Shown here in pieces: positions 32,227 to 63,129 of a stretch of DNA of 64,000 nucleotides. Source of the stretch: Psammoneis japonica (taxonomy: Eukaryota); assembly GCA_008632985.1 (NCBI GenBank), contig QPGO01000079.1, positions 186,001 to 250,000 on the forward strand. Direction: 5' to 3'. Position 1 is the stretch's first letter; each line of letters opens with the position of its first letter. Made by a program: the position numbers and the translations under genes. The notes beneath the pieces are model-generated. The model was not told the DNA's origin, did no database searches, and saw only the letters and a program-made list of their open reading frames with translations.

Positions 32227-35200
32227 GCTGCTCAGTTTTATAGTGTTTAACACCTAAGTAAAGCAAGTTCACATCAACAACACATGCTGAGAGAATGTCA
32301 GAGGACGGTTGCATGCTGATGTTTCGAATGCGAAAGCATTGTGTGAATGCTGTGGGAACAGCGAAGAGCCGTCCGCAGTGGACAACCTTCATGATGATTT
32401 TTGCAGATGTGAGTGCGGGGACAACAGGAAGGAAATGGAAGAGGGGGGCTCAGCTGTTGGAGAATGTGAGTTGGCTTGGCTGGCTGACATCATTGCAGCA
32501 TGCATGTGTTGGATGGAGAATGTCTTGGCTTGTTTTGATGACACCAAGCATGGGGGGTGTTGGCAGGGATGGTGACTTCATTGCATTTGACAAGGTCTGG
32601 ACAAAGGGCGATGTTGCAAAGTGACCAGATGAGTTCCAGCAAAGAGTGGATGAGCTGGTTGCATCCAGCTGTCTCAAATTCATGGCCAAAGTCTGGGGCA
32701 GTGACAAGGACAATGGAGCAAGAATCCACAAGCATGTCTCTCAGCATGGTGCAAGGGCAAGGCTTTTCCCAATTTGGATGTGGAGCTGTGTTGGTGGTCA
32801 GAAGATGACAATCTCTTCTTCTGCATGGTGCACATGAAAGCAAGCCAGCAACTGAAGGATCTTGGCAAGGAAAGCATGCACACTGAAGCTTGCTTCAAGG
32901 CAACTCCATTTGGGGGGTGATGAAATGACTGGCGGTGTTGACGGTGAGATTGAAAAGTCAGAAAAGATGCAAATGGACAGTCTGCTTCATCAAAAGCATG
33001 CAAGAGCATTGTGCAAGGTGAGAACCACACCAGATGCACTCCTGGTGCTTGAAGAGGCTCCAGATGATGCAACAGAGGCTGAAAAGGAATTGGAAAAGAA
33101 GAAGCCAAAAAACAAGAGCCAAAACAACAGCAAATCTCATTTGTCATTAGAGTGACCAAGTTTTGTTGGGAGGCACCAATCCAGGTTTGTCTGAAAGAGT
33201 TGTGCAACAAACATGGACTCGCTTGGCTTTGCTTCACAGTGTGCCACAATGATGAATTCTCAACTCTGCTGGAGATCTTCCAAGAATGTGATCTGAGTTG
33301 AAAGCTTGTGAAACATGTGGTGTCATGAAACTTCACAGATCAGCCTCCGGAATTGATGGGAGATGCATCTTGGTGGCAAGTGGTGCAAGAAGATGTGTGC
33401 TGTGCACCAAGTTGGGTGTGTTGGTGTTGCAACTGGGCACACACTCCTGGCAGTGTGCAATGCCAAAATGTGAAAGCTCAGCAAGGCCAGCACCTGGCAG
33501 ATGCAGCAGAGCTGACCAAAGAGGGGAAATTGGATTCATTCACAGCACACTTGCAGACCATTTTCTGAGAGGACACAAACCAGCCAGCCACAAGCTCAAA
33601 AGAATGACTGAGTGCAAAACACTTTGGCAGGTGAGAGGTGAGCCCAGCCACCAGTTGTGTGAGAAAACACTTGGAGTGCTTTGAGTGCACCCTCTGTGCA
33701 TGAGAGAAAGAGTCAAAATGCTTTGTCCAGAGTTGATCGACATGTGGCAAGCAACAAAGCTTCTCCGTGGCAACCTGCAACACAAACAACAGCTTAAACT
33801 TTGGTGCTTGCAGGCACAAAACAAAGTTTCACAGGTCCACGGAAGACATGTCTGGCATGAAAAGCACCTGAGCTGATGTGAGCAGTGTGCCCAAAAGAGG
33901 CTGCAGCAGCAAAGATGGAGGAGCAGATGGAGACACTCCAAATGAGAGATGTCTTTTCATCTGAGGTGAGAAACGCGCATGCAGAGGTGAGACATTTTGT
34001 CTGTCCTTCTTTTGTCAACATGCTTTCCATGAGAGCAAATCTGGCTGGACTTTCTCCAAATCTTTTTTTTCTTCTTTCCTTGGATCTGTTCATTTTGACA
34101 TGCCAGGAGTTGTTGTTCTCATTGCTTGCGGCTGTGCTGCTTTTCTCATTTGTCCTCGGTGGTGATCTTTGGCTGGCAAAAAAAGGCCCAGCTGGGGCCT
34201 GCAAATGCAAGAGTGGAGCTGGCTTTGCCAGCACACTGACTGCACTTCTCCAAAACAAATCCAGGCTGGACAGCAAGGGCTGGAGGGTGGGAGAGGTGGG
34301 AGCATTTGAACTGTCGTCAGGAACAGGCACTTGCTGTTGTTCTTCCCAAAAGAATGAGAGCAGAAGCCAGTGCTGACATGCATTTTGGGTTTGCCAATCA
34401 AACCAGGTTTCATCTTCAAACAATGGTTGAGTTGCATCATCAACGCATGGCAATGTGCATGCACAGTGGCAATGGAAACCATCATCTGGCCTGACCTCCT
34501 CCTTGATCCACACATCAGGGATCAGCCAAGCACAGCTTCTGCCCCAGGCAATGCATGCAAGAAGCACATGATTCCTGAAGGACACACCTGCACTCTTCAA
34601 ACCACCACACCTGCATCTGGTCTGAACTCTGGGCCCAGAGTTGCAGTTGTCTTCTCACTGTTGGGTGCAGTGATGCAAGCATTTTTAATGTCTGCTGCCT
34701 TGACCTCCAAGTCATTTGGAGTGGCCAGAGTGAAGGCAATTCTTGCACTCTTGTGTGATGCAATGCTTGTGCAGCATCATGCATTGTCAAGCAGCAGAAG
34801 AAATTGTGCATGTTCACAATCACATGATGTCATGTGTGTCAATCGTGTCACAGTCGTGGATGCATGCAAAGGACAGATTAATCACACAGATGTGATTGAA
34901 TGTCAAAAATTGCAAATGCAATTGGACAATGATGATGACACATGAGATGTCAATGTTGATCACATCCGGACAATCTGTTGTCATGATCTAATTCTCTGTA
35001 AGGCCTTCAGTTTGCAGACACAGCACAAAAGCTTTGGGCCATGAAGAACTCCTTCAGAGAAACCCCAAATCTCAGAACACAATCCAATCTCATAATTTTC
35101 CACTTTTCATGATTCATTCTACTTCTGTTCACAATTGTTCTTCAAGCATGGTGCACTTGCATGTGTTGAGGTCACTGGAGGTTCAATCGTGTGCCCCCCA

Positions 35201-35229
35201 GCTGTGCAGTGTGCCCCTTTGCACCCAAA

Positions 35230-38200
35230 ATCCTGCAGCTTGATGTCAAACACCAAGTGACTTGATGTGCTGGTGTCCCACCAGTTGTTCATTGTTGTCA
35301 ATTGTCTTGAATGCCTTCCAAACAATGGACATCTCCTTGTTTGTGGAGTCTTGCCACAGGCAATTGCCACTTGCCTTGTCAATGTTGACTGCTTCACAGC
35401 AATTCTTGTGAATGCACACCCCACACTTGTGGGTGCATTTTAAGGCACAGGGAACCCACCATGCAGAAGTGGGTTCATCTTCAATTGATCAATGTCTGGC
35501 ATGCTGCTCCACCAGCTCAGCGGGATTCAATTCCTTGAAGTTGCCAGATGTTCCCAGGTGGTGGCACCATCTTTCCATCAAACACCAAGATGCCAGCCCT
35601 TGGTTGTCTTGCACATGGTGCTGCATCCCCTGCTTTCCTGGGTGAAGGTGTCCTCCTTCTGGACTGTGTGTTCATTGGTCTTGTGGCCTGCAATGGCATC
35701 CAGCAACAGGTGCTGGTTGCCTTCATTGTTGCACTGGGCAAGCACATTCTTGGCTGTGACATTTGCTGCAAATTCAGCCTCCTGCCCATCAGAGAATTTG
35801 ACCTTGCACACACAGGTGTCCAGGGACAGATTGGGCTTGCTTGACCTGTTGGTGTTCCATCTGCATTGAGCTTGCATCTCTTGACTGTCCCAGTTTGCTG
35901 TGTGTCCCTATGAGGCAGCAGCACTTCTGAGTTTGCACATGCATTGAAGGCTGCATCCAGGATGTCATCCTCATTTGGAGCACTGGATGGAACATCCTGT
36001 TCCTTGTCATCTTTGCACAGATCAAAAGTGGGGGTTGCAGCATCTGGATCATCTGTGTCCCTGACTGTCATGCCGGGACCAAGCTTGGCCTCCATCAATT
36101 CTTCAAACTTTTCATGCTGTGCTTTCACGCAATGCTTGGCGATTCTCTTGGTGGCATTCTTCTGTGGTCAAGGGTTGACAGGTTGAACATTAGACAACCT
36201 GTCCATTGTCTTCAAGTGTCTCAGCCATCATGGCTGGACCCACATTCCAGCTGGGACCAAGGTGTCACCCTGGGACCTCCTTGTCTTTGGGGAACAAGGC
36301 TGCCATGTCAATGAACATAACCCAGTCATGATGCCAGCCAAAATCACACATGTGCAAAATGTCAACTCTCTGTCCTGACACAGCAGTTTTGCCATCCAGT
36401 TTGAAAATGTTGTGGACAGTGTTGGATCAAACAAGAGCCTCAAGTTAAAGGCAATCATTCCAAATTCATTTCAGGGCTCGTGTCTCAATCATCTTGCACC
36501 CTGCAGCACCATGCTTCAACTCACAAATGGTGCCCTCAGCAGCATTGGACCAAAGAATGCAGGTTCAGTTTGTCTGATGTGACAGTCAGCCTCCCTGACT
36601 TTCTTGTTGAATCACCATGTCATGGCATCTGTTCTTTTGCCCATCCACTGTCATCAACAATGCTTTGTGCACCAAGGGGCAAGCACGTGCCCAGCCATTG
36701 GACATTCCAAAGACTTGGGCACATGTGTTGCCTCATCTGGACCTGATGGCAGAAAACATTGTGTCAAAGCACATCTCCTTTGTGACACACCTGCATCTAA
36801 GTTGGCCGTCATTGGCTCCAAAGTTGCGCGACAGCAACAGATGCAAAAGACTGCATGAACATCATGCAGAGCAGTGACCTCAACAGCATTTTCAACATCC
36901 TTCAAGCTGATGGACCAGTTCTTGGCAAAACATTCAGCACCCACTTGAAGTTCCCGCTTTGTTGTTGTGAGCAAAGAAAGATTCATTGAAGCAAGAAGCA
37001 CATGGTTGTTGTGTGCATTTGAAATGTCCCACAATGGCTGGCTCCCCAGACAATTTGATGTGCAAGAGCTTCATGCTCATGATTTGGATCTCTGAGGACA
37101 TGCATCATCCCCAGCCTTGTGCATGCAGCCAAGGGGATCTGTCATGAAATCCTCCCTGGCTTGGTGGTCTGATGACTGTGGGGGGATTTGTGGGCAAGGT
37201 CATGCACCAAGCCATCTTGCACAGTGGCTTTGCACTCAGAAGCAGCAGGTTTTATCATCGGGAAACAGCTGGATGAGAGTTGGTCCTTGTCTGTGTTGGA
37301 GAGTGTTGCCACATGTGACATGCTGTCAGGCTTTGTCATCAGGAATTTTGGTTTCAGGTTGATTCCCACATCATTTGGCTGCAGTTGCATTGGGCACAAG
37401 AGGTTGTGTGCCAGGTGCGGAATGTGGTCTGCCTGGTGCACAACCAAGATGTGTTGATGTCTCACAGCAGGATGATCTGCACACACCACGGCACTGCCAA
37501 TGGTGTGCAAGCTTTTGCCAGTGCCCAGGTCAGGAGGATCACATCCTATGACATCTGCAAGATGATCATGGTTGAGTGATGTTAAAGTGTGTTCAACCAG
37601 TGCTTTCACTTCTGCACGACTGTCAATCTCAGTCTGAAATTTTTTTGTGTTGCACCCCCAACATGGGCATTTGCATGAGGCACAAGGTCTGAAGTGGGCT
37701 GAGGTGCACAGCCTTGGAGGAGGAGAACCATCATTCATTCTTCCAGTGTGGCTTTGGATGGCTTGTCCTTGGGTTTGTGCCCACAAGCATTGTGCAGGGA
37801 CTCAAGCTTTTTCTCAGCCTGTGGTGACATCTTGCCACACTCCTTTGGAGGTGGCACTTGTCCTCTGCGTCATCAGCATGAATGACACTGCACTTGCATT
37901 TGCCAGTCTGCAAGGCAGCAATGCAAGTCTCTTGCTCTCACTGTCAGGCTTGGACTGGCTGCTTGATAAAATCCTCGAACAGGGCTGCACAAGCTTCAAA
38001 GTTGCTGCGCAGCATCATGCTGCCACAATTTGTGTCTTGACTGAGCCAAGGAAAGCATTGTTGACACTCTCCAGAAGGTGGAGCACCTTGAAGTGGTCAT
38101 CAATTCTGGCACAGCTGCACTCCTTGAGGCCTTCAAGGATCATGTGCTGTTTGACATGAGCGCTGTTTGACATGAGCACACACACAGCACTCGAAATTCC

Positions 38201-38995
38201 AGTTGTGGCATTTGCCACAGCAGGAGAGCAATGCCAAGCACTTTTCAGCAGTGTTGTCCATGTTGTCCATGTCACCATGCCCCAAAAAATGGTTGCAGAG
38301 GTTCGCGCAGGTGGTCCTGCTGTCCTGAGCTCTTTGGGCCTTCTTGACACAAGCCCAACATGAGTGTTCCCATGTGATGCCTGAAACAACCTCCCAGACC
38401 TTGACATTGTTGGCAGCAAAGGTTTTGGCAAGCTGAGGATTGTCCCCAGCAGCAAAGTGTGGGGCACATGCTCCAATCTCCATGCACACATTGGTGCAGT
38501 TTGTAGAGTCATCTTGGGCTTCCAGAACCAAGCACACAAGTGGCATCTTGGTTTCACTGTGACAAGCCCACAGGTGCTCATGGATTGACTCTGTGGTCTT
38601 AAGCCAATCCTTCTCAATGATTGTTTGTGGGACTTCAGGGTGATTCTCATGGGCCCCTTCAGCAGCATGGAGGTGACGGGGCATCCCCAAATGCAGTTCA
38701 GTGTGACATCGGCGGCACAGAGAGGAGTGCAAGAAGAGATCCTTTTGCAGTGGTGTGCACCACAAAGGTGGCAAGCTTGAGATTCATCTCAGCATGGAGG
38801 GAGATGGCAGTCCCCAAGTTTGGCTGTGGGCTCTGCCCACCTTCTGTCACACCTCCTGGATGGCATGCAACCTTTTTGAACAAGATCTTGACCTCATGAT
38901 TGTCAAGGCGACTCTCAGTTTGTTGACAATGTTGATTCCCTGGCTGGCAGTCAAGACTGTAGATGCTTTGTTCTAGAAGCCAAGCCTGCAGCATG
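35230..38995 (-). mobile_element. Degenerate Ty1/copia LTR retrotransposon (diatom CoDi-type): gag, protease, integrase and region preceding RT
   Basis: gag NWNFECCVCAHVKQ...LEGLKECSCARIDDHFKV; protease TEIDSRA...HNLLCPMQL; LDTCVCKVKFSDGQEAEFAANVTAKN..AQCNNEGNQ and KTTKGWHL. No LTR pair found. Confidence 0.8.
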
Positions 38996-39695
38996 CGTTG
39001 CTGCTGTGGTTGATGGTGACAGATGTGACTGCACTTCTGTTCTCACAAATTGTGTGGAGTGTGGATGTGACAGAAAAGTGAGAGAAGTGCATGATTTTCA
39101 CATCACTTTTTTTTGTCATTGCATGTGCACCCGGCAGTTCATGTGATCAACTTGTCTGAGGTTGTCATTCCACACATTCTGTGCTTGTGCTGGTCCAAAA
39201 CACATGTGCAGTGGGGACTGGAATGACTGCCCTCACATTGACACTCTTGGTCAAATGCCACCAGTCCCATCATGAGACATCATTCTCCCAAGGTCCACCT
39301 GACCATCTGTGAGTTTTGGACACAATGTGTTCAATTGCATGGCATGCACACATTCCCACATGGACATGTGTGCGGCTGCTCAGATTTCAAATTGCTCGTG
39401 CATTTGCCACCGAGACAACTTCGGGGTGGAAATGGCATCCCAAACATCAGCTGAGCTCTGCACTCGTGCAGGTGTGCCATGAAACACATCAGAATCATCG
39501 CGTCGACAAGCAACAAAAACAGCATCACTCATCTGTGCAAAGAGAGCAGGAATGACAACATGTGCCAAAACAACCAACATGACTGTTGCTGTTGCTGCTG
39601 CCATTTCTGCTGTTGAGATTGCTTTCTGTTTACAATGGCTCCAAAGAGGATTGCAGCAGTGGATGCAAGTGGTGAAGAGAGCAAAGCAATGTCAA

Positions 39696-40194
39696 CCCTT
39701 CAACCACCGGACTTGAGCAAATCTCCATGGGTGGAAATTTGCTCGCTTGCATCACAAATGCAGAGCAAATGAAGTAATTTCAGATGCACACAATGTTTTG
39801 TTCACGCGATTTTGTTCTGGAACGCGCATTCGCTGAAAATCTGGAGGCACCCTTTTTGCAATTTAGAAAGTTCAATGTCGACTTTTAACACTGGGTTTTT
39901 TGCAAGCTTCATCTGTGAACAGAGAGGAACTAAATCTCAACCTTCAACAATGAAGGTTGTCATGAATTGCCATCACAAATGGAGCAACAATGCCACATCC
40001 TGGGAGCAAATCTCCGCCGGTGGAGATTTGCTCCCAACAAGTAAATGCACGTGGCACACTTTACCTGGATTGCACACAATGTGACATTTCTTGCTGTGTT
40101 CATCACATTGTCACAAAAGTGCATGACACGTCACACATCCTTGAGCAGAGCAAATCTCCATGGGTGGAGATTTGCTCCCCTGGTGGTTGAAGGG
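39696..40194. mobile_element. piggyBac-like MITE, 499 bp, with 13-bp TIRs and a mutated TTAA target site
   Basis: TIRs CCCTTCAACCACC (39696-39708) and GGTGGTTGAAGGG (40182-40194). Flanks TCAA (39692-95) and TTGA (40195-98). Three internal GAGCAAATCTCC..GGA(G/A)ATTTGCTC palindromes. Confidence 0.75.
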
Positions 40195-40238
40195 TTGAGC
40201 AACGATGAAGAGTCCGTACATGGATTCACGGGCATGGG

Positions 40239-40321
40239 GTGCGATGCTTGATCAACAGTGACGAGCGCAAAATGTTGGGCTTCAAGTTGCTTGAGGATGG
40301 CGACAAATGCACAATTGGTCC

Positions 40322-40354
<33 letters not shown>

Positions 40355-41804
40355 AATGGTGGACAAGAGGACAGCAGAGGAAATGATCGAATCTTTGGTT
40401 GTCAAGCATCAAATTCTGGAGAACAAGGGACGACCAAAACGAACTCTTTCGCACATGACAAAGAGTCATGCTTTCTCATTTGCCGTCACAAAAGAACGGG
40501 TCACTTTGGGGCACAACTTCTTTTTCCCATTGCTGTCGGAGAGCAGCGCGGCAATCACTGCAGCTTTCAAGATGGATGGACCTGCATCTGCCCTCAACAA
40601 GAACAAGTGTCACCACCCCTGCTTCCTCTCGGAAACCAAGAAACTCATTGATGTGGTGCAGTTGGCAAACATTGCCATTTGACAACAGCTTTTCTGGACA
40701 AAAGGTGGGCACTGGCTCAAGTTGGATGATGGCATTTCCTCCGGCACAGAACCAGATGTTTCGACGGTTGATTGTGCGCCAGACAAAGGCGAGCCATTGG
40801 TGGCGTCCGCTGATTGAGTGAGGCTTCCTTTGACCAAGCACAACATGGCAATGGCTTTTGAACAAAAGAAAAGCTTCTTGGAGACTGATCAAATCAAATT
40901 TGTTGAGCAGGCAAGAGGCTTTTGTGCACACAACGGGGATGGCGGACAGCTTTTGTGGCCTTGTTTCACTGCTGTGGGGGCGAAAAATACATTCAATGGG
41001 CAAAGACAACTGACATGGATGGACAATTTGTGATGCAGACAACCAAAGCAGCATCCTTGATGCCTGGCGAAGATGGGCAACACCAGCTTCTCACAATGTC
41101 ATCCAAGACGTCCAGGCAGCTGGGACGAGATTTTCCTTCCTGTGGTGGTGACGCAATGCAAGTTTCAGAGAAACCAGATGTTTTGTGTCAGGTTGGCAAG
41201 GGGGCAACATCTGCTGTTTGTTGTGCAAAGCTCAGGGAAACAGAAGGAGTTGCGAAAGTTATGAAAAGTAGATTCAAGCATCCAGCAGCACATGAGAAGG
41301 GCACTCTTGACCAGTCAGAGAGGAAAGGAGTCCCTGGTTTGTCGGAAAGCACCTTGGTGATGAACGGTGTCCTCTTTTTCAATTCCTTGCTGCAGCCGTT
41401 TGAAGGAACTTTCACAGTCGAACAAGTTGGTGATTCTGCAGACTTCATGGCTCAGTTTCAGATTGGGGTTTTGCCCTGATTCACAATTCTTTGAATTCAA
41501 GCCCTCCAAATTTAGAAGGCACTTTTTGCCATGCAAGCAAAGATGTCTTGAATGCTGCCATTCACGCGGAAACACACAGCCCCATCCAAAAGATGATCTG
41601 GAGTTGTTTCTCAAGACCGTGCCAGCCGTCAATTCTGGGGGGCACCGACTGTGGAAAAGATTGTCTGAAACAGAGCAAGGTGATTTTGTTGTGGCCCAAG
41701 ACATCTGGAGAGAAGAAAAGGAACAACACTTGAACTCTTTCCTCTCAATGTTTGAAGCAGCAGCATCTGCCAATTGCGAAGCACTCAAGCAGTTAATTCA
41801 TTGA
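40239..41804 (+). pseudogene. Degenerate protein-kinase gene (Crinkler/FunK1-like architecture)
   Basis: QVGKGATSAVCCAK...GVAKVMK (Gly loop and VAK) and PHPKDDLELF; broken by stops and frameshifts; polyQ near the start. Confidence 0.5.
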
Positions 41805-44800
41805 TCTTTGAGTGCGACACATCTGTGGTGCTTTTTGTGGTCATGGTCATGGGTCTTCTTCTCTTGGCCAGCAGCTCCTTGTTCTTCCTCCAATCTTGAA
41901 AAGCATGGGCCAGAATGTTGAGGCATTTACACTTTTCTCATCTTCTCCTCCACAAGCTTTTTGAACCTCAGTTTCTCCCTGTTGGTCCACTTGCGCCTTT
42001 TGCACTCAACAGGGGTTCCAAGGGGCTGTTCCTCATTGTCTGAAGGGTTGCATTCACACAAATCAGTCTCCTCCATGGTCCATTGTTTGTCCATTTGAGT
42101 GGAACTGAGATGGAGCGGTTCCAAGCACTCCTTGCATTTTCAAATCGAAGCACGTTAAAATGGAAGTTTTCCAGGGGCAATGAGCACCCGGAAAACTTTG
42201 ATTTTGGATTTTTCAACTTGGTTTTTCACCACCCCCAAACAGGAGGGTTCTTGTGTCAGTTGCTTCAGGTGCAGTGCAGTGCTTGGTTGATTGCATGCAA
42301 TGGCTCACATTGTCTGCACAGGCAGGCAGAGCGCTTGCATGCTTGCAACATGGGTGACCAGATCTTCTTGGTTTTCCGAGAACCTCCCTGCACCGCCGCA
42401 ACTCTGCCCACCATCAAGCCATTTTGTCATCTTTGCAAGCTGCCGCCAGTGTGGCCAACAACAGAGGAGCGCCCTTTGAAGTCACTTCTCCCTCATCTTG
42501 CGCAAGACAATCATGCCGCCAGAGAAGAAGAGCCACAAGAAGAAGCAGCGCCAGCCTGAAAAAGAGCAAACCCAAAGGCAAGTGGCTTGCCAGAAGCAAA
42601 AGAGAGAGTTGACACATGGCAGCTGCTGCCATGAGCTCTTTGGAGTTGTGCAAACAAGTCCTCAACAAGGCCCAGCAGTTGATGGGCAAGTGCCGCTGCA
42701 GGAAACAACAACTGGCTGTGCTGCAAAATGGGGGGATGTTTCTGGCAACTCGCAGTCTGTCTGGGTTTTGCTGTGCAAATGAGCCAACCGGCAATGTGCG
42801 GGCAAGTTGGTGAGCAGCATTTTTTTCAGCCTGTCCAGAGAAGTTTGAGTTCTGCCAACATGACAGCAGGTTAGCAGGAACATCAACTTTGCTCAAAGAA
42901 TCAGTCCACAGAGATGAAAAAAGGAGCTGCTTCTTCTGCAGCAACAAAAGGGTGCACCAATTCCAAGTGAGAAAAAGAAAGAATGAATTTCAGATGGAAA
43001 GATTTGTGAAAAACGTCATGTCGCCACAAGAGTCCTGACAAGCAACTGTGCAACAATCATTGAAAGACAAAATGTCCTCCCTTGGCCCTTGAAGTGCACC
43101 GGTGCTTCCCACCTGCCAGCACTTGCCACAAAAGAGAAAGGACAAACCTTGCTCTCACAGTTGGTGCAAGGCAATGACACTCTGCTTTTGTTAAGAACAT
43201 TCACAACAAGGGCACACAACCTTTGGATTTTCACTCAGGCACTGAAAAGCATGATGAAAAGGACAGGCAGCGGAGCACACAATCTGGCATCTTGGATGCA
43301 TGCATCAAGGAGGGGGTGGATGGCAAATGCAAAGTGTTTGTGACAGCAGGGTGCAGTGGCAACACAAGTTTCACTTCAATGATGACTCACATTGGAGTGG
43401 AATCATGTTTTGCACAACAGCTCCCTTTGAGCTGATCACAGCTCAAATCAAGCACAACCAACATGGTCAATCCACAGAGCTTTTTGAGGATGCTGCCAAC
43501 CATGGCTCTTTGACAGCATGCATGCCACCAAAGAGCAAAAGCCAAAAGAAGCAGCGCCAGCCTGAAAAAGAGCAAATCAAAAGGCAGTCAATGATGGCCC
43601 ATGCTTTGATGGACACATTGCCAAGCAAGGCCACCTGTGTCATTGGAAAGAATGGGGCTGTGTGTGACATCATCTAGAGCAGCACTTTGTGCATTTCAGA
43701 GGAGCCTTTGTTCCAGCTGGTGACTCCCTCTCTCATCTCCAGGGAGGGATCTGACAGCTGTGATGACCCTGACAGGACACTGCAGCCACCTCTGTTCACA
43801 GACAATGTGACAGAGTTGCTGCTGCAACCTGAGTGGAGACAGAGACAGAACTGGGTTGTGATCGATGCAATCACAAAAAGTTCTTGGTGACACAAGATTT
43901 AAAAATCAAATTGCTCTTCATTGCATGGAAACCAAAATGACGCCAATGCACTGCTCAAATCACAGCCAGCACATTCAATCCACAGAGCTTGTCATGGATG
44001 CCACTGACCATGGCATTTTTGTGCAGATCAAGGCACCCCAATCACACCATGGCAAGCCCACTGTTCCCACAACACACTTTGTCATGGACAGTCATTGAGA
44101 GCCCTTGCCTCATTGCACAGCTTTCCATGCACCAACAGTTGCACAAGGTTCATGCCAAAGCTCAAATTGCTTCTTTGAAGAACTGCACTGGCACACTTGT
44201 GGAGCATGTCAGCTGCCCCCCTGTCTTGACAACCAAGGGAGTGGAACATCACCAGCTCTCCAGTTGATTTGTTCACAGAAACCCTCCAAGAGCTCAGTTG
44301 CTTGCCTGAAGTTTTGCCACACAGCACAGCAAATTAGCTCCAGCAAATCTGCTTGCTGCGGGAGATGAGACAATTGTCCACAATTAAGTTGTCACAGTTC
44401 ATGATGCAGGTGCACCCACAGCATCTTCTTGCAGCATGATGCTGAGTTGCCCACGTGTTGCTTTCAGGGGGGAGACAAACAATGAATGAGAAATTTGGCA
44501 CAAACGCTCTCACAAGAGCTGCTGCAATCACTCCTTGATTTGCCAAATCTCACCACAACTCAACAGCTTGCAAAAGCCAGCCAGTTCTTCTCAAACCAGC
44601 GCTGCAATGTTTTCATGTGGATCTTGTGGGAATGGCCTGCACCTCTGCTTTCCAAGGAAGAGGGAGAGTGCAGTCACAACAGTCTGTCAGGTGAAAACAG
44701 CATCCATGAGCCGCGGTGTTTGTGTGGTGAGATTTGGGTTCTGAGCAGCAAAATGGTTTGACAGTGCACAGAGTTGTTGCTGCAAAGGGGGCTCTGCACA

Positions 44801-44984
44801 AGCTCATTTCCAGGGCACTGGAAGAATGAGTTGTGATGTTCTCCACATGCCACAAACACATCTCATGTGATGAAGATGAGACACACAAGCACATCACCCA
44901 ACTCATTTTTCAAAAACTGCACACAGCACCCCTCGGTGTCCTTCACATGGCCAAATGTTTGTGCAGAGGCCCCTGATCAGGGGT

Positions 44985-45683
44985 GGACAAGACATGTGTT
45001 TTGCTCATCATGCACTGGCTCTTCCATCTTTGGGAGGACAGCTGACAAGGACGACATTGATCAAGCCTCTGGCTCAGCCTGCTGGTGGCCACTTCTCTCC
45101 CATGTGTCAGTCCAGGACTTTTGTGACCAAACAAGTTGCACAGGAAATTGTCAGGGGCAAACCAAGATGAGGCACCAAGACAGCGTTTGTCCTTTGGAAT
45201 GCAGCAAAGCTGCCACCCAAACAAATGATTGGCAGACAGAGCATTTGATGCCATGTGGTTTCACCACCAATGGTGACAGTGTGCAGCTCAACATTGCCAC
45301 AGGATTGCAGCATGTCTTTTGTGGTGGCAAGTGCTTGGGAGCAGAGGCAAAGAGGCCCCTTTTTGGTGTGACAGATGTGACAACAATGTCTTGTGCACTT
45401 GCAGGGATGCCAATGTGCAAGTGGCACGGCCTTGCAAATTCAATGATTTAGAGTGCTGATGTCCAGCTGCAAAGACCTGTCTTGACTGCATTCAATCTGA
45501 GGCAGAAGCTTGTGACAATGAATTGCCAAACAAGACTTGCAGCTCTGGGAGTGCCAGCAGTTTGGAAAAAAAGGCTGTTTGAGAGTCATTGCTCTGTCAC
45601 CCACTCCTTTGAGCCCAAGTGCAGAGCCAACAAAATCCCCAACACCACTGCTCATGACCAGGCCCACTCAAACCAATGGACAG

Positions 45684-45725
<42 letters not shown>

Positions 45726-46620
45726 CCTCTGACTGTGTCTCCAATGTTGCCAGCACAGGCAATGGCATTTCCAAGCACAGCGGGGCCACAAGTGTTGGCA
45801 CAAGCAGTGTGTCACCCAGCGCACCAACTCCAATGAGCAGCAATCCCATCAATGCCTTTGTGGGTTGGATGCCAGTTCTGTGGGCAGGGCTGCTGCAGAG
45901 GCGGCTTGCTCTTGTTGCAATTGGGTGGCTGCTGCAGTGGTGTAGATCACTGCCATCCTTTGGGCTGCTCAATTTTACAGTGTTTGACACCTGGGCAAAG
46001 TGGGTTCACATCAACAACGCACGCTGAGAGAATGTCAGAAGACACTTGCGTGCTGATGTTTTGAACACAAAAGCACCATGCAAATGACACAGGAACAGCA
46101 AAGAGCTGGCAGCAGCAGACAACCTTCATGCTGATTTTTTAGATGTCAGTGCAGGAGGGACAACAAGAAGGAAATGAAGGAGGGGCTCAGCTGTTGGAGA
46201 ATGTGAGTTGCTTTGGCTGGCTGACCTCATTGCAGCACCCACAAGTTGGAGAATGTCTTTTGGCTTGTTTTGATGATGCCAAGGATTGGGGGGTGTTGGC
46301 AGGGATGGTGACTTCATTGCATTGGACAAGGTCTGGACAAAGATGTTGCAAAGGGAGCAGATGAGTTCAGCTTGCTGCACCCACCCAGCTGTCTCAAATT
46401 CATGGCCAAAATCTGGGGCAGCAACAAGGATGAGATCATGGAACAAAAAGAATCCACAAGCATGTCTCTCAGCATGGTTCAAGGGCAAGGCTTCCCCCCC
46501 ACTTGGATGTGGGGCTGCTGTGTTGGTCAGAGTGCAACAATCTTTTCTTTTGCATGGTGCACATGAAAACAAGCAAGCAGCTGAAGTGTCATTTTGGCAA
46601 GAAAAGCACGTGCACAGTGC
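44985..46620 (+). pseudogene. Hypermutated paralog of 30988-32885 (mucin-like gene plus 3' flank), with (AAC)n run at ~45685-45725
   Basis: Alignable by eye along its length; only one PTS repeat unit; frameshifts and stops. Confidence 0.9.
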
Positions 46621-47865
46621 AAAGACTCCCTGATCTTTGTCAAATCATTCTTGCCAAATCAAGTTTCCTTTCAAGTGGTGCACATTGAAGGAAATCAACA
46701 AGAAAGTGCAGTGCATTGTGAAAAAAAGTGAAACAAGATGGCCAGATCTGAGCCAATCAGATGTCAAAGGCCCCTGCTCAGGGGCAGGGTCTGAGCCCAC
46801 AGGCACTGCACAAAACAGTCCAGAATCATGCCAACCAAAGAAAAGTCAAGAATTGTTTGCATGTGCATGTTGACATTTTTCAGCTTTAGAAACTTGAGAT
46901 TCAGTCACAAAAATGACTCAAATCAGCAGCACACTCACACTTCAATGACAAGAGTGTGCAACATCTTTTGCTGCATCAACACCACACTGTTGCAGCAAAA
47001 TGGAGCAAACGTCACTCAGCTGAGAGCTGCTGTTGCCTTCCAGTGCATGTCAGGGAACATCACAAGCTGGCCAACAACTGCAATCTGGTGCTGTGTCAGC
47101 TGTGAGGGAATGTGAAGCTTGAGCCAAGGACACAAAGAACTTGTTTTGTTGTGTTTGCCTGTCACAGAGTTGCAATCACCACAGCTCACACAAAAGGAAC
47201 ACCGGGTCTTCTTGAAATCACTTGGCAACAATGGACACATGTGTGCACAAGGCAATGTCAGGTGTGGCCTCTGTGTGCCAGCTGTGCAGCATGCTTGCCA
47301 AAGCAATGAAGCAAAACAAAATGGTGATGCAAGAAGCATGTCCAAACACTGGAGCAACAAGAGAAAACATCTTGAAGACACAAGACTCAGCAACTTTGTG
47401 AGGTCACAGAAGGAGCTGCAGACAAGCAGCAGACCATGCAAGAAAGCATGACATGCCTTGCCCACTTGCAATGCCCAAAAGCTGCTGCCATTGCACCCTG
47501 GACTGGCACAGGTTTGGTGCCCACTTCAGAGACAGCTGTGTGCAAGGTCATCTTCCCAGGAAGAGTCATGATTTGTTCAATCAAATTTTAATCTCATTGG
47601 ACCCACAGAAGCTCATTGCAGTCCCCACTGTGAATGAAAAAGCCATTTCATGGCCACAGCTGCCAAAACACATCAAAGCTGAATCATTTTTGAATCGAGA
47701 CATGACAAGCCTCGTGTCGCGTGGCAGCACAAGACAATGCACAGGAATGCATGGCTGTTGTGAAACACCATGTAGTTGCCAATTCTTCAATCTGCAACTT
47801 GTGAGTCAGATTCTCCTCAAAGTCCAGAACCAAAAGTGTGAGTCCCATTCATTTAAAAGCGTTGG

Positions 47866-49011
47866 TCAGTTGGGATTGGCCTTGGCTCCCAGCAATGCAG
47901 CAACAGCCTTGAGCGCACGTCCGCTGAAGTCAAAAAGACTGCACCGTGGCACCTCACTCCACTCTTGTGCCAAAAACCACTTTTCGGGCTGCGTCCAATG
48001 GGGTCCCCAACAAAACAAAGCAGTGCAATTCATCCTCATCTGAAGCATCATTGTTAAATTGTGAAGGCAGTCACACTGGCCTTGTTCTGTCAGGGGGCAA
48101 GGGCACTTCTTACTGCATTCATCATCCTCATCTTCAGCGCAATCTCTTTCGTCACCTTTCCAACAGCAGGCTGTTTCCACTGCCCACACATCGAGTTGGG
48201 GGAAAAGTGTGGACAAATTGTTGATGTTGTCCTCGAGGTCTTGGATGGATCCATGCCACATTGGACAGCAGGAAAGGCCAATCACATCAACGACTCCACC
48301 TCGGTTGAGACATTCACGGAACCATTTCTTGCACTCCATTTTGTTGCCGCCTTCATTGAGATGAGTGACAATCTTGGGACGCTTCTTGGGAGGGTCCATG
48401 TCTTTGACAACATCATTGACCGCATCCACACCACTTTGCACCAATGGCATGAATTTGTCCCAATGATCAGGCAAACAAGCCATTTCCCACAGCATCCCAA
48501 CAAAGATCTCGTTCCCAATTTGGACGGCATCAGGCATTGTGTCTTGATCCTTGAGCGCTTGCATGAACTCCTTGGTGTGATTGTAGACATGATTCCACAG
48601 TGCCTCTAATGAAGGCTGTGTTCCGTTGCTGCCGCCCACCCGCCACGACAACGGGGTCCATTGATTTTCCCCGTCGGCCCACCAATGAGAACAATGAAAA
48701 TCTGAGAGGAACTTGAACCCGCATTCGTGCTTGATTTGCTTCGCAAAGTCCAACACATGCGCAAGATTCTGGTTGAGACCATGTCTTCCATCCGGCTTGA
48801 CCATGACTTGAAGTCGTGCACAATCGCAGTCCTCAAAGAACTTTGGCACACGCGAAATTCGTCCACAAAAATCCTTGTAGACCACACCGGAATGTTCAGC
48901 CACCATGGCCTCCAAGCCGTCAAATCCAACCCAAAAGTCTTGCTTCGGCACACCAGTGTGGACTGTTGTTGCAACAACAGGCACAAGTGACACCATCAGT
49001 GTGAGGATCAT
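47866..49011 (-). pseudogene. GH53 endo-beta-1,4-galactanase; frame open but Tyr->Cys/His mutated
   Basis: DFHCSHWWAD, PDAVQIGNEI..GMLW, DVIGLSCCP.WHG, VETACCW and LFCW correspond to GH53 DFHYS.WAD, VQ.GNE, D.IG.SYYP.WHG, ETAY and FYW. Confidence 0.8.
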
Positions 49012-51598
49012 CGGCTTCGATTCTGTTGCGGATGTTCAAATGGAGCAGTAATTTCGAAGGGAGAATCCATGACAAATTCTCAACGTTCTTCATCTTGGTC
49101 TGCATGAGAGTCCATCTCGTGGTCCGTTGGTTGCAGGATGCTGCGTTCAGTCAGGTCTTGGGTCTCCTCTCCTTTCTCCATCAGTCTTGCATTTCGCCAA
49201 CAAAGCACCCTCAAATCAGGACATGCACTCACACTTCGATTTGTCACGATGATTGTGGCAGGCACTGCCCCAATAAAAGGTTTGGTGCAACAGCAGTGGA
49301 AGCAAGCAAATGACCAGCGAGTCTGGTGAAAGTGAGTGTGGTTGAGTGTTTTTTGTGCTTTGGTGAATGACACAGCCCCTCTGCATTTCTTGTTTCAATT
49401 TTTCCCAACCTTTCTCGTAGACCTCAGTTCAAAGTTGCACCAGAAGAAAGGCCAAAAGCCGGTCAAGCCACTCTTTTTATTGTCTCACAGCATTTGACAT
49501 CGTGTCAACTGCTCCCACAATTACACACGTGTCACTTGATCGATTGGGCCTTTTTCTGATCGTGATTCGAATGTCTTCCACAAATGATGTACAGCACATT
49601 TTCTTTCAGTGGATGATTTTGGAGCTTTGAGCAAATCTACGAGTGATGGCCTTTGCAGCCTGCAGTTAATTCCACTGTACGACAACCATGCTCACCGTTC
49701 ACCGAGGCCACAGGTGACAGCAACCCACTCTCCATCGTGAGTCTGTGCGTCGACCACAGACTCTCATGATGGAGAGTGACAGCAACCCCATGAGCAAAGC
49801 TGCCAGTGGCTGAGCACAACAATTCATTGCAGTCATTCATTTGCCTTGAACTCTTCCTTCCAAAACTCTGGACATTCTGGATCTATTTTGCACATTGCTT
49901 GCCTTCCCAAGAACAGCAGTTGGCAAACTTTTGATGCCCAGCTCAAACTTCCTTTGACCAGTTTTGGGTGCACTGCCATGGTTGCTTCCAGCTTCCTTGT
50001 CGAGATCTGGAGCTGGTGGTGGTGTGCACACACCCAAAATTGTCAGAAAGCTGACTGCAGTCTTCTGAGCAGCACTGACACAGCTGCTCTCATGCTGTGA
50101 TGATGCTTCTCCCTTCTTGTTGCCCGCTTCTCATGCAGAGCCATCAAAACACCCGCTCTGCCTTCTCTTGTCTCAGGTCAAAAGAGAGGAAGTCAGCTGG
50201 GTTGCCACCCACAAGGGCTGTTTTCTTGAAATGCTCAGTGAGCCACTTTTTTCTGGTTGAAGTGGACAAAGAAGAAAGCACGCCGGCCGGTGAGAAAGAC
50301 AAGGACTTGAGACACACAATGGTGCAATGAACTCAGCAGCACTTTGCACGACATTGGTGGTGCATGAGCTTCAACAGCAGAGGTGACGCAGAGTGTGGCC
50401 GACAAAAAGAAGCCATCCAGCACACAGAAGCAGGGCACTTGGCTGTTGTTGTGCTGAACAGCTCTTGGCCCCAGAGTTCAACAACAGTGCAGCAAAACAA
50501 AAAATTGCACAGCTGTGTTTCAACTTTCAAAAGAGTGTCTTGTTCTCTGTTGCTGGTTTTTTGAGAGCAGGGGCAGACATGTCCCAGCCGCACGTGAACC
50601 AAATCATGCACAAAAATGACTTTGCATGATTTTCGTGCAGTCTCGCTGATTTGCAACCTGGCTTTCTCCACCAAAAGCACAGATTTGTCCAAATTTGAAT
50701 GTTTTGAAACACTGACAAGACTTGCATCAGTGTTGTAATGTCATTGTTTTTGTGTGCAATGTGTGTTTTTTGTTGCGATGAATGAATCATGACACAACGG
50801 ATGATTTTCGGCGAAACCATTGCCGTCATTTTGATGTCAAATGTCAACATGAGCGATGTTTCTGCAATGCTGTCTTGCATGGGTTCCACCTGCAGACAAA
50901 TCTCTGCACACAGTGCACTGTTGCACAATCAGCATTGAGTCCACTGAGGAAGTTCACGATGCATGTCCCACAGGGACTTGCACGCCAACGAAAAAACCAG
51001 CTGAATGTCCTTGCTCTGCACACCTGCTGCATGAAAGCACATCCACTTGAGTGGTTGATGTGAAAATGCTCCACACACGAGAGACACATGGTTTGTGTTC
51101 AAAATTGATTGTCGTTTTGTGCATCACCTGGGACTGGAGCACGCCGGCAAAAGTGGACTGGCACTTGGATGACGCCGCTGCTGTGGGTTGGAGATGTTCT
51201 TTTCTCTTTTTTCAAAGCGCACGCATGAGAGCAAAGTGGTGATTGCCACAGGAGTTTGTTGTGCACAGCTGCTAGAGGCACAGTCAGCACAAAACACGTC
51301 CCCGACAGTTGGCTGAAGATTTGTGAGAGGCAAAGAAAATTATTTGACCACCCCACAAGAAGGCATGAGCAACTCGAGCTCTTCTACAAAGGAGCTCGCG
51401 CACAAAGCATGCCAAAAATTTTTGGCGCGGCAGCATATCATGCACTGACGAATGACCGACCATTCAAAAATAACAAAAGAGCACAAAAGAGCAACAACAA
51501 CAGTCAGAGAAAATAGGGCCCTAGTAGAGAAGAACAAGAAAGTGTTTGCTATCGACACACACACAACGTTACATACCATGACTTGTTGTCCCTAAAAT

Positions 51599-54840: not shown

Positions 54841-54913
54841 AATAGCCTTAGCTAGCTGGGTCTACAGCTAATTTCGTTGATAAATTTCAGAACGACGCTC
54901 CTTTGCTTGGTTT

Positions 54914-57975: not shown

Positions 57976-58139
57976 TCCTGTTAAATTGAACACGAAGTTA
58001 ATCATGCACATGTTTGTCGCATTCCGACATGATTTGGTTTGCCCTAAGAAAACCCGCGAAATTGTCTGCGTGAGCCAACCCACAGTGCAAATTCTACTTA
58101 GGCAGCTCACCTCTAGACGGTGGATAAAAGTGTTCGGGA

Positions 58140-60895
58140 CGGGCATGTTGACGTTGCTCGTGCCCGCGGCCACACGCTTGTGCGGCCCATCTTGATTGCT
58201 GTCAACCTCACTTCTGAAGACACACTCTCAGAACAAAAAACACAGGTTACAATCTCACAATGGGGTTTTGGCAGCTGAGACCCCTTTGTGTGGTGCAATC
58301 AACAAAACACAGACACCACTCAACAGCCTTTGTTTAAATTGGTCCACACGTGCACACCACTGTGTTGACTGGGACGGCACAGGTGGATTGTGTGTCGTTC
58401 TTGTGCTGGAAATGCCATGGTGACATGTTCACCTCATTCCACCATTTTGGTTGTCTTTGTCACACAAGACACTGTTGTTTCTTGTGTCTTTGAAATCACC
58501 CAGCAAACTTGAACCTTCATTGGCACATCTGGATTTTGTGGCTTTGCTTTTTGTGGCTGTTTGTCTCCATCGTGCATTCTTGGCATTGGGGGGCAAGAGT
58601 CATTGAGACACTCCCCACTTGATTGTGTTTTCCAGCTTTTGAGTGTGTTCGTGAATGTGTTTGGTGAGCTGTGGACTGTTCATCTTGCATGTTGTCAGCT
58701 TGTGGCTGTCATGCTTGGGGAATTTTGGACCATCATCAAAAACTTGGCCGTGGCATTTGCTCTGCATTTGGTTTCACTGAGCCAATGTGGACTTGGTTGT
58801 TGCATTTTCTTGCCACTTTTTATGGGAGTGGCATGGCACATTGGGGTGACTCTGGAGTGCAACCAAAGCCTTTGTTGACAACTTGGAATCTGTTTTGCAA
58901 AACCAGGATGACAGCCAACCCCTCAATCTGTTGGCTTGGCCAACAATCCGGTTGAATGAGATGGTGCCATGGGGCTCAGGCTTGTGGTCATTTGCCTGAG
59001 AGCTCTGTTGTTGAGAACAGAGCAGATGCACAGGTGACACTCCATGAATGGCAGATGTGTGAATTTTGCCATTGTCATCCTCAATGTTCCATTTCAATGT
59101 TCCTTCCCCTTCAACTTTTGGGAGTTTGCCTCCAGCACCTCTTGCTTTCATCTTGACTGGCTCAAGTTCACCAATGAAGTGCTCCTGCTTGATTGGCACA
59201 CAGTGAAAAAGGTGCCGTTGTTGATGCCCATCATGAGAGCAACTTTGCAAGCTGCTTGTTTGGCAGCCCATTGGTCAGTTGACCTTGTTGTTTCACAGTT
59301 GTGTGCCTTGGACAGCAGCTGCTTTTGTTTGGTGGCAAGTGCTTGCATGGTGCACTTGCATCTGCTGTTTTTTGTGGAATGATCCTCTCACCCAACATCA
59401 TTGTCTGTGTCATGACTTTCTTGAATGCTTTGTGAGAAAGGCCAGGTGCAACAACCAAGATTGTTGGTGCCATGGGAGGTGCCATGATTGCAGTCATCCA
59501 GGCTGCTGTGAGGGCTCTGAGAAACAGAATCAGCTCAGCCAGCTCCCACAGTGTGTCCAGGTCTCTAGAGAGCCCTCATGAAAGTCCCAAAAGACCATCT
59601 TTCCTTGGATTGGATGTCCTTGAGGACAGCAGGAGGTGCATTTGAAAATGAAACTTTCTTCAAGAAATCCAAATTGTTGCCTGTCTGGCTCTTGTGATTT
59701 TCTCAATCTGTGGCCACATTGGGTCTGTCATCATCTGGTGGGGGTGAATGACTTGTGGTGCCGGTGCCAGCAGCACTTGTGGCTGCCACGAGTCTTGAAG
59801 CAGCACTTTTTTGCCATTTGCAAGCTTGGCAGAGTGAAAGTCCTTTGGTGGAGGAGCTCTTTTACAGGAGTCATTGGAGACTCCCTTGTGCCTTCTTCTT
59901 CCTTTTTGTTCTTCTTGGACTTCTTGCCACCCTTGTCCTTTTCATTTGATGCACTCATTGAACTTTTCAGTTTTGCCCACACTGGCCATTTGTGTGTCTG
60001 AACCTGACAGATTCTCATGAAAGAAGTTCGTGGCAGAGCTGGTGTCCATGATGGCTTTTTGGACAAGCAGCTTGAAAAGAACACCATGCCAACTAGATTG
60101 CCATTGGCGGTGCATTGCTCATGCTTGGAAATGATTTTTTCTGTGGCTTTGGGACAACTGAGAAATGCACTTTGCCATCTGCGCAGCATTTTGAGCTTGC
60201 AGTTTTGCACATGGCTCCTGATGTCCTCCACCGCAATGTTTGTCCTTTGTTTGTGGCAAGCTTTCTGTTCACACAGATGCTGTTTGGATTGTCAGCAATG
60301 TCCCCAGCTCCTGTCATCCATCCTGAGGAAGCTGCACATTGAATCAGTGTCTCAGAAAATTTGCTCAAGCCTTCAGAGCCAGCATTGAAGGCCCATCAAA
60401 GAGCTTGGATCTCATTGTGCCACAGCTTGAGTCCCTGGGAAGCACTGCAGTCAATGAGCTGATTGGGTTGGTGTTGTCCTGGCATGAGTGCAAAGACAGG
60501 CACTGTGGCAGGTGCAGCAGGATGGGCTGGAGGTCCAGGAGCATTAGCCTCACCACAAGTTGGCACACCGACACCGCTGCCACCTCCAGGAGGGAGGGAC
60601 AGGCGCGCCATTGTGGCGGACATTGTGGAAGAACAAGGCATTCTTGACACAACCAACCCTTGCCTTTTGCCTGATGTTGGCCTTCAAAGCCCCAGCTGCA
60701 AAGGTTGCCTGCACTTTGACATGGTCCATCCAACCACCGGGGCGCATGAGCACATTGCTCAGGAGTGAGCACCTTTGGTGACAGTTGTGCTGACACTGGA
60801 TCATTCAATGGCATTATTCTTCGAGCAACTGGAAACGGCAATCCGTCCCTTCCCCGCTCTGAAGGCCGTTTCTCAGATGGCTTCAATGCTGTTGA
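58140..60895 (-). mobile_element. Degenerate copia-type LTR retrotransposon fragment (gag/protease), TpA-depleted
   Basis: KVEGEGTLKWNIEDDNGKIH...LLCSQQ..QANDHKP..GT (protease region of diatom copia) and KKCCFKTRGSHKCCWHRHH (gag C-terminus). Confidence 0.6.
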
Positions 60896-62679: not shown

Positions 62680-63129
62680 TGATGATTAACTATTGTTCGA
62701 TCGTGTGCATATTTTTATGAGCAACTAGAGAGTCGTACGAATGAAAATGTTCGAAACGAGAAGCCAAGAAGCAATCGTGAGCGAGCGATGAATCCCCTCT
62801 CTAGCGATTCCGTTTATTTCACATTTTGCGACTTGCTGCATGGCAGTTCCTTTGAAATCTCTAATACTATCAGATAGAAATAGACATATATCAGCCAGAA
62901 TCAAGCAGAGCCAAGCAGCAAAGCAATACGATATCTTGGCTTTGTCTTTCTTGTCTCCTCAAGAGCTCAAGACTCAAGATTGACGGGCTGACGGGGGTGC
63001 GCGCGTCTCTCACAAAAAACATGATGGCAGCGGCGCGCCCTCCGCGCATGTCTCGGCTCCAGTTGACGCAGTTTTCTTTCTTTTCTCAACCGAGGCCATT
63101 TTTTTGTTTGACAAGGAACCCTTGTGAGG

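Follow-up and report, generated by a model that had tools for sequence, protein, structure and literature searches.

Probable inactivation of a GH53 galactanase gene by dinucleotide-specific hypermutation within a sharply bounded domain of the diatom Psammoneis japonica

Introduction

Hypermutation that targets a single dinucleotide in bounded chromosomal regions has been described in the alga Bigelowiella natans. Here we analyze 64,000 nucleotides of the diatom Psammoneis japonica (GenBank assembly GCA_008632985.1, contig QPGO01000079.1, positions 186,001 to 250,000 of the forward strand; this whole stretch is called the window), in which an open reading frame (ORF) of glycoside hydrolase family GH53 lies in a domain of comparable composition and has probably been inactivated by it. 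According to the accessible part of the B. natans preprint (Mettrop et al., bioRxiv 10.64898/2026.01.13.699255, 2026), the mutation rate of two integrated viral regions that are silent is about 1000-fold higher than in the remaining genome, and 230 of 231 de novo mutations are A>G or T>C, all 230 of them at TpA. The same text reports 324 coding sequences (CDS) and 124 clusters that are TpA-depleted, and proposes an ADAT2-like DNA adenine deaminase as the cause. In its accessible part the term CpG has no occurrence, and neither diatoms nor a wider sequence context are mentioned.

The P. japonica locus resembles the B. natans inserts of nucleocytoplasmic large DNA viruses (NCLDV) and virophages, as far as the accessible text describes them, in that A:T pairs are changed to G:C at TpA, giving TpG and CpA, in bounded single-copy regions of tens of kb. 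It also resembles the long-term TpA-depleted, TpG- and CpA-enriched clusters and CDS reported there. The host is a diatom (Stramenopila) here, whereas it belongs to the Rhizaria there. The observed/expected ratio (o/e) of TpA is 0.00-0.18 here, near saturation, versus 0.45 in their NCLDV region. The change of CpG to TpG or CpA is equally pervasive here, whereas in B. natans the mutations described are almost exclusively at TpA and G:C>A:T is rare. Finally, the recognisable victim in P. japonica is a host-type GH53 gene with no visible viral origin, and a preference for a pyrimidine at position +1 is seen (T-A-Y, where Y is a pyrimidine). Our literature search returned no diatom report of such tracts, none of coupled CpG loss and none of the T-A-Y preference; on TpA hypermutation itself it gave, besides the B. 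natans preprint, only a modelling paper of 2013. The TpA process is already in print for another alga; the CpG coupling and the T-A-Y preference are absent from the accessible text of the sole report found.

Other systems offer partial parallels. In ascomycete fungi, repeat-induced point mutation (RIP) changes C to T at CpA and enriches TpA. It shares with the present case a dinucleotide-specific transition hypermutation that kills genes in bounded regions, so that frames and annotations can mislead. The dinucleotide outcome is opposite, since TpA is depleted here; moreover, RIP needs duplicated DNA and strikes both copies, whereas in the window one copy of a duplicate is untouched and the GH53 gene is single-copy. 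The decay of 5-methylcytosine (5mC) at CpG in vertebrates, plants and methylated diatom transposons likewise gives TpG and CpA on both strands equally (23 TG and 26 CA in the duplicate described below) in apparently silent DNA. However, it cannot account for the loss of TpA, which is more complete than that of CpG and has its own T-A-Y context. ADAR and APOBEC enzymes, which act on animal viruses and retroelements, also produce clustered A>G or C>T changes with a neighbour preference and inactivate their targets. Their substrates are RNA or single-stranded replication intermediates, whereas both strands of chromosomal single-copy DNA are affected here, and the hit region includes a copy of adjacent host sequence.

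Results and Discussion

A GH53 gene altered at its conserved tyrosines

The ORF and the codons discussed below are the following (positions are those of the window).

47866..49011, minus strand: GH53 (endo-beta-1,4-galactanase family) ORF, 381 amino acids, ATG to TGA, frame intact
48808..48810, minus strand: codon 68, CAA (Gln), Arg of the RLR motif; Arg in 34 of 40 homologs; CGA to CAA is the expected CpG to CpA change
48691..48693, minus strand: codon 107, TGT (Cys), DFHY to DFHC; Tyr in 40 of 40 homologs
48508..48510, minus strand: codon 168, Glu of GNE, retained; invariant column
48265..48270, minus strand: codons 248-249, TGC TGT (Cys Cys), SYYP to SCCP; Tyr at 249 in 39 of 40 and at 248 in 27 of 40 homologs
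48175..48177, minus strand: codon 279, Glu of ETA, retained; invariant column
48163..48168, minus strand: codons 282-283, TGC TGT (Cys Cys), ETAYY to ETACC, just past the ETA motif; Tyr at 282 in 27 of 40 homologs
48010..48012, minus strand: codon 334, TGT (Cys), FYW to FCW; Tyr in 38 of 40 homologs

The initial annotation had read a GH53 gene with an intact frame here, with conserved tyrosines turned into cysteines in four motifs and only two tyrosines left in the protein, and all of this was found. The ORF matches Pfam Glyco_hydro_53 (PF07745) with E 2.8e-55 and 188 bits (cut-off 24), and covers positions 9-339 of the 340 of the profile in a single stretch. Its best match among solved structures is the GH53 galactanase 7osk (E 2.4e-31). 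With the solved galactanases (7osk, 1hjq, 1fhl, 1r8l) it shares the full-length domain and the glutamates of the GNE and ETA motifs, and the NCBIfam search assigned it to no family. Its closest GH53 proteins are 41-48% identical. The residue make-up is peculiar: 2 Tyr (0.5%), 21 Cys (5.5%) and 14 His, where eight GH53 homologs taken for comparison contain 3.0-6.4% Tyr and 0.8-1.4% Cys. At the DNA level, 5 TA and 39 CG are left in the 1146 nt of the ORF; TpA loss is nearly complete and CpG loss roughly half.

In a first alignment, Tyr is dominant in 24 columns, at which the ORF has 11 Cys, 3 His and 2 Tyr. A second alignment joined the ORF to 40 homologs (P0001-P0003 plus 37 chosen from 150 listed, lengths of about 300-520 residues being favoured). 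It contains 110 columns conserved at 60% or more, and the ORF deviates at 21 of them. These deviations are concentrated on tyrosine: of the 9 conserved Tyr columns 8 deviate, with Cys in 6 and His in 2, compared with 13 among the remaining 101 conserved columns (Fisher p = 4e-6). At the six Tyr>Cys columns, Cys is absent from all 40 homologs. Family conservation thus polarises the change of TAY codons to TGY or CAY, as the initial annotation had argued. That diatom orthologs might naturally carry Cys at these positions is at odds with the homologs, as the 40, including nine close metagenomic relatives, keep Tyr. Compared with known GH53 proteins, the near-invariant Tyr 107, 249 and 334 as well as Tyr 248, 282 and 305 have become Cys (Y107C in DFHY, 248 and 249 in SYYP, 282 and 283 after ETA, 334 in FYW), and the conserved Arg 68 has become Gln. 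Other conserved columns were also altered by a TA or CG to TG or CA change, namely S33L (TCG>TTG), R68Q (CGA>CAA) and L103S (TTA>TCA). The ORF departs from GH53 in the conserved aromatic and basic residues near the active site, namely the Tyr of DFHY, SYYP, ETAY and FYW and the Arg of RLR. On the other hand, the columns of E168 and E279 are invariant in both the 9-sequence and the 41-sequence alignments; we take E168 (GNE) to be the acid/base and E279 (ETA) the nucleophile.

The relatives of this gene appear to be ordinary. At nine metagenomic loci of the close GH53 clade, the TpA o/e of the gene is 0.53-0.69 and Tyr amounts to 2.5-4.3%. One of these loci ends in a poly(A) run, and another adjoins genes for eIF2D and a haem peroxidase on a eukaryotic-looking contig. 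Normal TpA, poly(A) and the eIF2D neighbour indicate that GH53 of this clade is an ordinary eukaryotic gene keeping its tyrosines. No relative was found in the viral contigs that were scanned with the ORF. A protein-atlas search with the homolog P0001 gave bacterial GH53 clusters only, none of them informative on the close clade.

The intact frame requires comment. Changing TA to TG or CA yields no TAA, TAG or TGA from sense codons, and among CpG changes only CGA>TGA creates a stop. To examine this, the window's own long intact ORFs were cut into segments of 381 codons and mutated in silico. All 3913 of 3913 segments remained open when 90% of TA were changed, compared with 41% under an equal number of random transitions. 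When 45% of CG were changed in addition, which is the load of the GH53 gene, 21% stayed open versus 17% for random transitions, and with all TA and CG changed the figures were 3% and 6%. An open frame is thus expected under TpA change alone; at the load of the GH53 gene it is no certainty, but nothing remarkable either. The statement of the initial annotation that TpA mutation leaves ORFs unbroken is correct for TpA, but it has to be qualified by the concurrent CpG change, which can make stops. It follows from the simulation that the open frame of the GH53 ORF is no evidence of function.

Could the ORF nevertheless encode a functional, diverged GH53 paralog that naturally uses its cysteines, for instance in disulfides or metal binding? 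Its intact frame, its two conserved catalytic Glu columns and its 188-bit Pfam score would agree with this. We regard it as very unlikely, since Cys is missing from the 40 homologs at these six columns, TA>TG/CA predicts precisely the changes seen, conserved Leu, Ser and Arg columns were struck too, the surrounding non-coding DNA was rewritten likewise, and about one gene in five would keep an open frame at this load. As judged from its sequence, the GH53 ORF is probably a pseudogene.

Hypermutated tracts in the window

The gene belongs to the largest of four tracts of the same kind of composition, which also ends in a repeat.

32260..51500 (right end approximate), no strand: main hypermutated tract, TpA o/e 0.00-0.18 per 500 nt, TpG and CpA o/e 1.4-2.4
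49337..51337, no strand: high-copy repeat at the right end of the main tract, summed k-mer depth 513-4243 versus about 62 elsewhere
1..1557, no strand: second tract, same composition, truncated by the window start
58126..60814, no strand: third tract, same composition, between ORF 55684-57975 and an amidohydrolase gene
62933..64000, no strand: fourth tract, truncated by the window end, zero TA, CpG o/e 0.3-0.5

In the remainder of the window the TpA o/e is about 0.5 and the CpG o/e about 1.0. In the main tract TpA is depleted about 10-fold and CpG about 5-fold. Per kb, normal parts contain 35.6 TA, 60.9 CG and 148 TG+CA; in the tracts the corresponding numbers are 3.3, 13.1 and 226.9. The loss of TA+CG (80.1 per kb) is balanced by the gain of TG+CA (78.9 per kb). 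The tract edges are sharp to tens of bases. At the left edge of the main tract, 34 nt past the stop of ORF 30994-32226, the 15 TA of 32015-32259 are followed by several hundred bases without any TA. The right edge, which precedes ORF 51796-53055, is blurred over about 250 nt.

The main tract is uneven in CpG: 32.5-39.5 and 43-47.5 kb have an o/e of 0.03-0.25, and 39.5-43 and 47.5-51.5 kb one of 0.24-0.74. The tract may be a mosaic of parts differing in age. The segment 39500-43000, for its part, combines complete TpA loss with a milder CpG loss (o/e 0.24-0.57) and resembles the GH53 end. CA exceeds TG over 42-49 kb, with a skew of -0.07 to -0.18. Tandem repeats in the main tract are limited to three trivial arrays. 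For the repeat 49337-51337, neither a Pfam domain nor a tandem or inverted structure was found, and the loose ends of its other copies retain TA and CG.

An internal duplicate gives the direction of change

A duplicated segment, of which one copy straddles the left edge of the main tract, makes it possible to follow individual sites.

30988..32883, plus strand: duplicate copy A, straddling the left tract edge; its left 1.27 kb has normal composition
44985..46615, plus strand: duplicate copy B, entirely within the main tract; match to copy A
45457..45459, plus strand: TGA in copy B in place of CGA at 31456-31458 of the copy A ORF; the sole stop created in that frame

Because of its normal composition, the left 1.27 kb of copy A serves as an ancestral-like reference. 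The two copies are 80% identical in four-letter comparison and 90-96% in purine/pyrimidine coding, which means that nearly all their differences are transitions. From copy A to copy B, 27 of 32 TA sites have become TG or CA (17 TG, 10 CA) and 2 are kept. The 51 CG sites went to TG (23) or CA (26) in 49 cases and none is kept. The fraction of changed bases is 75/151 in TA and CG steps, 14.7% in TG and CA steps and 9.1% (39/428) outside pyrimidine-purine steps. About half of the bases in TA and CG steps being changed, this corresponds to about one change per site. The ORF of copy A (30994-32226), for which no Pfam or NCBIfam match was found, contains 7 Tyr and copy B none (Y>C 4, Y>H 2, Y>S 1). 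Right of the tract edge, depletion is found in either copy, and the two mostly agree apart from some disagreements between TG and CA or CG. This suggests that the tract was already there when the segment was duplicated, and that conversion of the new copy followed at its present place. Adjacent double transitions between the copies are asymmetric, 21 TG>CA versus 7 CA>TG (p = 0.013), and strand-biased cycling by way of CG or TA intermediates may be the reason for the excess. As a separate observation, positions 31618-32031 inside ORF 30994-32226 consist of three to four tandem units of 120 nt that are 85-93% identical, to which a single unit is aligned in copy B.

One duplicate copy is untouched, the GH53 gene lies outside the duplicate and the gene has single-copy k-mer depth, all of which suggests a process tied to a chromosomal domain and not to repeated DNA. 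These data bear directly on a RIP-like explanation, in which a repeat-induced premeiotic process would act on the duplicate and the high-copy repeat and leak into the single-copy GH53 gene. The tract does hold a 1.9-kb duplicate, and the summed depth of its repeat is as high as 4243. Furthermore, DNMT4 enzymes related to fungal RID are present in many diatoms, with unknown function, according to the accessible part of one article (PMC9998398). However, copy A has escaped mutation in its left 1.27 kb although this part is duplicated, whereas copy B is saturated; most of the tract's 19 kb is at single-copy depth; and the loose ends of other repeat copies keep TA and CG. The specificity is also different, with A>G at TpA and C>T at CpG here in place of the CpA-directed, TpA-raising change of RIP. 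We consider this explanation unlikely.

Still less can be said for the idea that the tract is foreign DNA, of viral or transposon origin, that was poor in TpA and CpG on arrival, which seems extremely improbable to us. CpG and UpA suppression is common in some viruses, and apart from GH53 the tract has no recognisable host gene. Copy B, though, derives from host sequence of normal composition beside the tract and was converted in place, the loss of conserved GH53 tyrosines is damage and not adaptation, and no GH53 relative was found in the viral contigs scanned. In addition, a Pfam search of the 83 other main-tract ORFs of at least 90 amino acids gave 0 significant matches and no viral hallmark domain; with one ORF of the first tract added, only two sub-cut-off matches (E 0.005-0.009) were obtained.

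Sequence context of the TpA changes

Survival of TA in the tracts depends strongly on the neighbouring bases. Compared with the numbers expected at normal density, 5 of about 281 RTAY sites (R, purine) survive (1.8%), versus 37 of about 116 YTAR sites (32%; p = 3e-14 for the contrast), with YTAY and RTAR at about 8% each. TTAA alone makes up 18 of the 78 surviving TA sites (p = 1e-9). The direction of change in the duplicate points the same way: YTAY sites gave 7 TG versus 1 CA and RTAR sites CA in 4 of 4 cases, so that 11 of 12 follow the predicted direction (p = 0.006). When CpG changes are split evenly, the tract-wide tetranucleotide balance shows YTAY>YTGY and RTAR>RCAR almost exclusively. 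Together these results indicate that the A that is hit precedes a pyrimidine on its own strand (T-A-Y). A purine before the T (R-T-A) was considered as the context and rejected, being contradicted by the direction of change in the duplicate. TAY codons fit T-A-Y on the sense strand, which explains that Tyr became Cys more often than His in the GH53 protein (11 versus 3). The base before the codon is a pyrimidine in 9 of the 11 Cys outcomes and a purine in 2 of the 3 His outcomes; these are small numbers (p = 0.18). For known deaminases, a table in a review (PMC10661471) gives the edited-A contexts 5'-UAG for ADAR1/2 and 5'-ACG for TadA/ADAT2. In ADAR a G follows the edited A, whereas a pyrimidine follows it here.

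The context also helps to judge whether a dedicated TpA process is needed at all. The tracts could be old, methylated, unconstrained DNA at neutral dinucleotide equilibrium, from which genes are held off by selection. TpA o/e is already about 0.5 in the normal parts of the window, the 9% background divergence of the duplicate means that time was available, and CpG loss through 5mC deamination is ordinary. Against this, non-coding DNA elsewhere in the window, such as the gap between ORFs at 17262-20067, keeps a TpA o/e of 0.56-0.60 and a CpG o/e of about 1.0-1.3, the tract edges are sharp, and the GH53 ORF lost about 85-90% of its TA without any indel or nonsense change. An ordinary mutation bias that would deplete TpA through A>G and favour a pyrimidine at +1 is not known to us. 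A neutral origin is therefore quite unlikely in our opinion.

Authenticity of the sequence

Contigs built from k-mers of a public run span 44001-64000 together with the tracts in it; their mean word depth is about 57-94 and uniform save for 49337-51337. Those on the tracts have a depth of about 62-68, like the flanks, and show 0-5 differences per contig with respect to the window. For the contig spanning 46463-49469, 5 differences were counted over 3007 nt; inside the GH53 gene, Trp139 of the window (TGG) is Arg (CGG) in the contig, and one other difference is synonymous. These contigs argue against a base-calling artefact; as the run may be the assembly's own source, they are no independent proof. 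Such an artefact would arise if modified CpG and TpA bases were miscalled as TG or CA by a long-read base-caller. The restriction of the pattern to sharply bounded domains is what base modification would produce, and the sequencing platform of assembly and run is off record. Nevertheless, the k-mer contigs repeat the tract with so few differences, a strand-symmetric miscall predicts mixed TA, CG, TG and CA calls and not a clean choice per site, and two in-tract copies of one sequence disagree at some sites (TG versus CA or CG). We judge an artefact to be highly improbable. A second run of the same sample, whose kind was guessed as DNA, gave contigs that cover 51983-57920 and 61138-62890 but no part of the tracts. 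The tracts may be silent or for another reason missing from that library; this is a lead only and was not used as evidence.

Proposed mechanism and significance

Taking these observations together, it is in our judgement quite likely that a once-normal diatom GH53 galactanase gene was inactivated by dinucleotide-specific hypermutation, and not by ordinary decay, in a sharply bounded domain of 19 kb. Within this domain TpA would have been driven to TpG or CpA (A:T>G:C) almost completely. CpG would have been driven to the same products (G:C>A:T), completely in the older parts and about half-way in the GH53 gene. The TpA component could be a region-targeted DNA adenine deamination as proposed for B. 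natans, and its context agrees more closely with a TadA/ADAT2-like enzyme (A followed by C) than with an ADAR-like one (A followed by G). Deamination of 5mC in the same silenced chromatin domain could account for the CpG component. The milder CpG loss and the lack of indels in the GH53 gene, where copy B has indels, suggest that the domain reached the gene later than its core and that the right part of the tract is younger. Given the replacement of four near-invariant Tyr and of one conserved Arg, the GH53 protein is predicted to be inactive, though both catalytic Glu codons stay. The interpretation of the initial annotation, a protein killed by TpA mutation with its frame left open, is upheld with four amendments: CpG is lost alongside, the process looks domain-bound, it prefers T-A-Y, and B. 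natans provides a precedent.

Several points weigh against this interpretation or limit it. What is said here of the acting enzyme, of its trigger and of chromatin state and methylation, and that the GH53 ORF would be neither expressed nor active, is inferred. The duplicate is old, with 9% divergence at other bases plus indels (11 and 51 gap columns in copy B versus copy A); for this reason the rate excess at TA and CG sites is bounded only from below, at roughly 20-fold as a rough estimate from the changed-base fractions. The two remaining Tyr codons (C-TAC-A) survive despite fitting the preferred motif. Coupled CpG loss may be a separate, ordinary process, as the accessible text of the B. 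natans preprint is without CpG mention. A GH53 relative is located among ordinary eukaryotic genes, whereas the B. natans targets are viral inserts, and the Pfam results on the 83 tract ORFs leave a foreign origin of the tract unsupported. Finally, of the differences between window and run, 9 of the 13 inside tracts and 12 of the 24 outside them fall at sites of the TA/CG to TG/CA type, in either direction. These figures do not discriminate, and reading such differences as a sign of ongoing tract-specific activity was rejected.

If the proposed inactivation of the GH53 gene is true, the just-described TpA>TpG/CpA process extends from one rhizarian alga to the diatoms, a major phytoplankton group, with saturation and very sharp borders as shown in this diatom locus. 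The T-A-Y preference separates candidate enzymes, TadA/ADAT2-like ones being favoured over ADAR-like ones. More tentatively, and with limited confidence, we suggest that diatoms might share a regulated, domain-targeted DNA editing with B. natans. In that case an ADAT2/TadA-like deaminase would act on T-A-Y on both strands of silenced chromatin, jointly with CpG methylation and deamination, and erase both self-complementary pyrimidine-purine steps. Such a shared editing system, if true, would be at least as wide as the Stramenopila-Alveolata-Rhizaria (SAR) group, and old. Host genes in such domains would silently become open-frame pseudogenes that annotation calls genes. Because the TpA process cannot create stops, its victims stay long ORFs with good domain scores. 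Diatom gene catalogues, e.g. counts of carbohydrate-active enzymes, may hold dead gene models that are poor in Tyr and rich in Cys and His, which a simple TpA filter would find.

Neighbouring genes and other observations

Several genes of the window outside the tracts deserve mention. The topoisomerase III ORF beside the main tract has its best named matches in the diatoms Thalassio* (68%) and Chaetoceros neogracile (65%), with 50% for B. natans, in agreement with a diatom source. Neighbouring ORFs carry DUF6824 and DUF7640; two adjacent DUF6824 ORFs lie at 8400-10767, one with a strong match (1.1e-24) and one with an edge match. Where the window has normal composition, two superfamily-1 helicase ORFs are located at 12937-15189 and 24604-27069, one of the AAA_11/AAA_12 type (Upf1-like), the other UvrD-like. 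Between two hypermutated tracts, at 61190-62685 on the minus strand, an amidohydrolase of the TRZ/ATZ or nucleoside-deaminase type is encoded by two overlapping ORFs, split by an intron or a frameshift. Its best NCBIfam matches are TRZ/ATZ hydrolase and 5'-deoxyadenosine or MTA/SAH deaminase, all under the cut-offs. As this family deaminates small molecules, its location between the tracts is probably a coincidence. In the topoisomerase III region, 52299-53832, 19 single-base differences between window and run, mostly transitions, are clustered in about 1.5 kb and probably represent a divergent haplotype.

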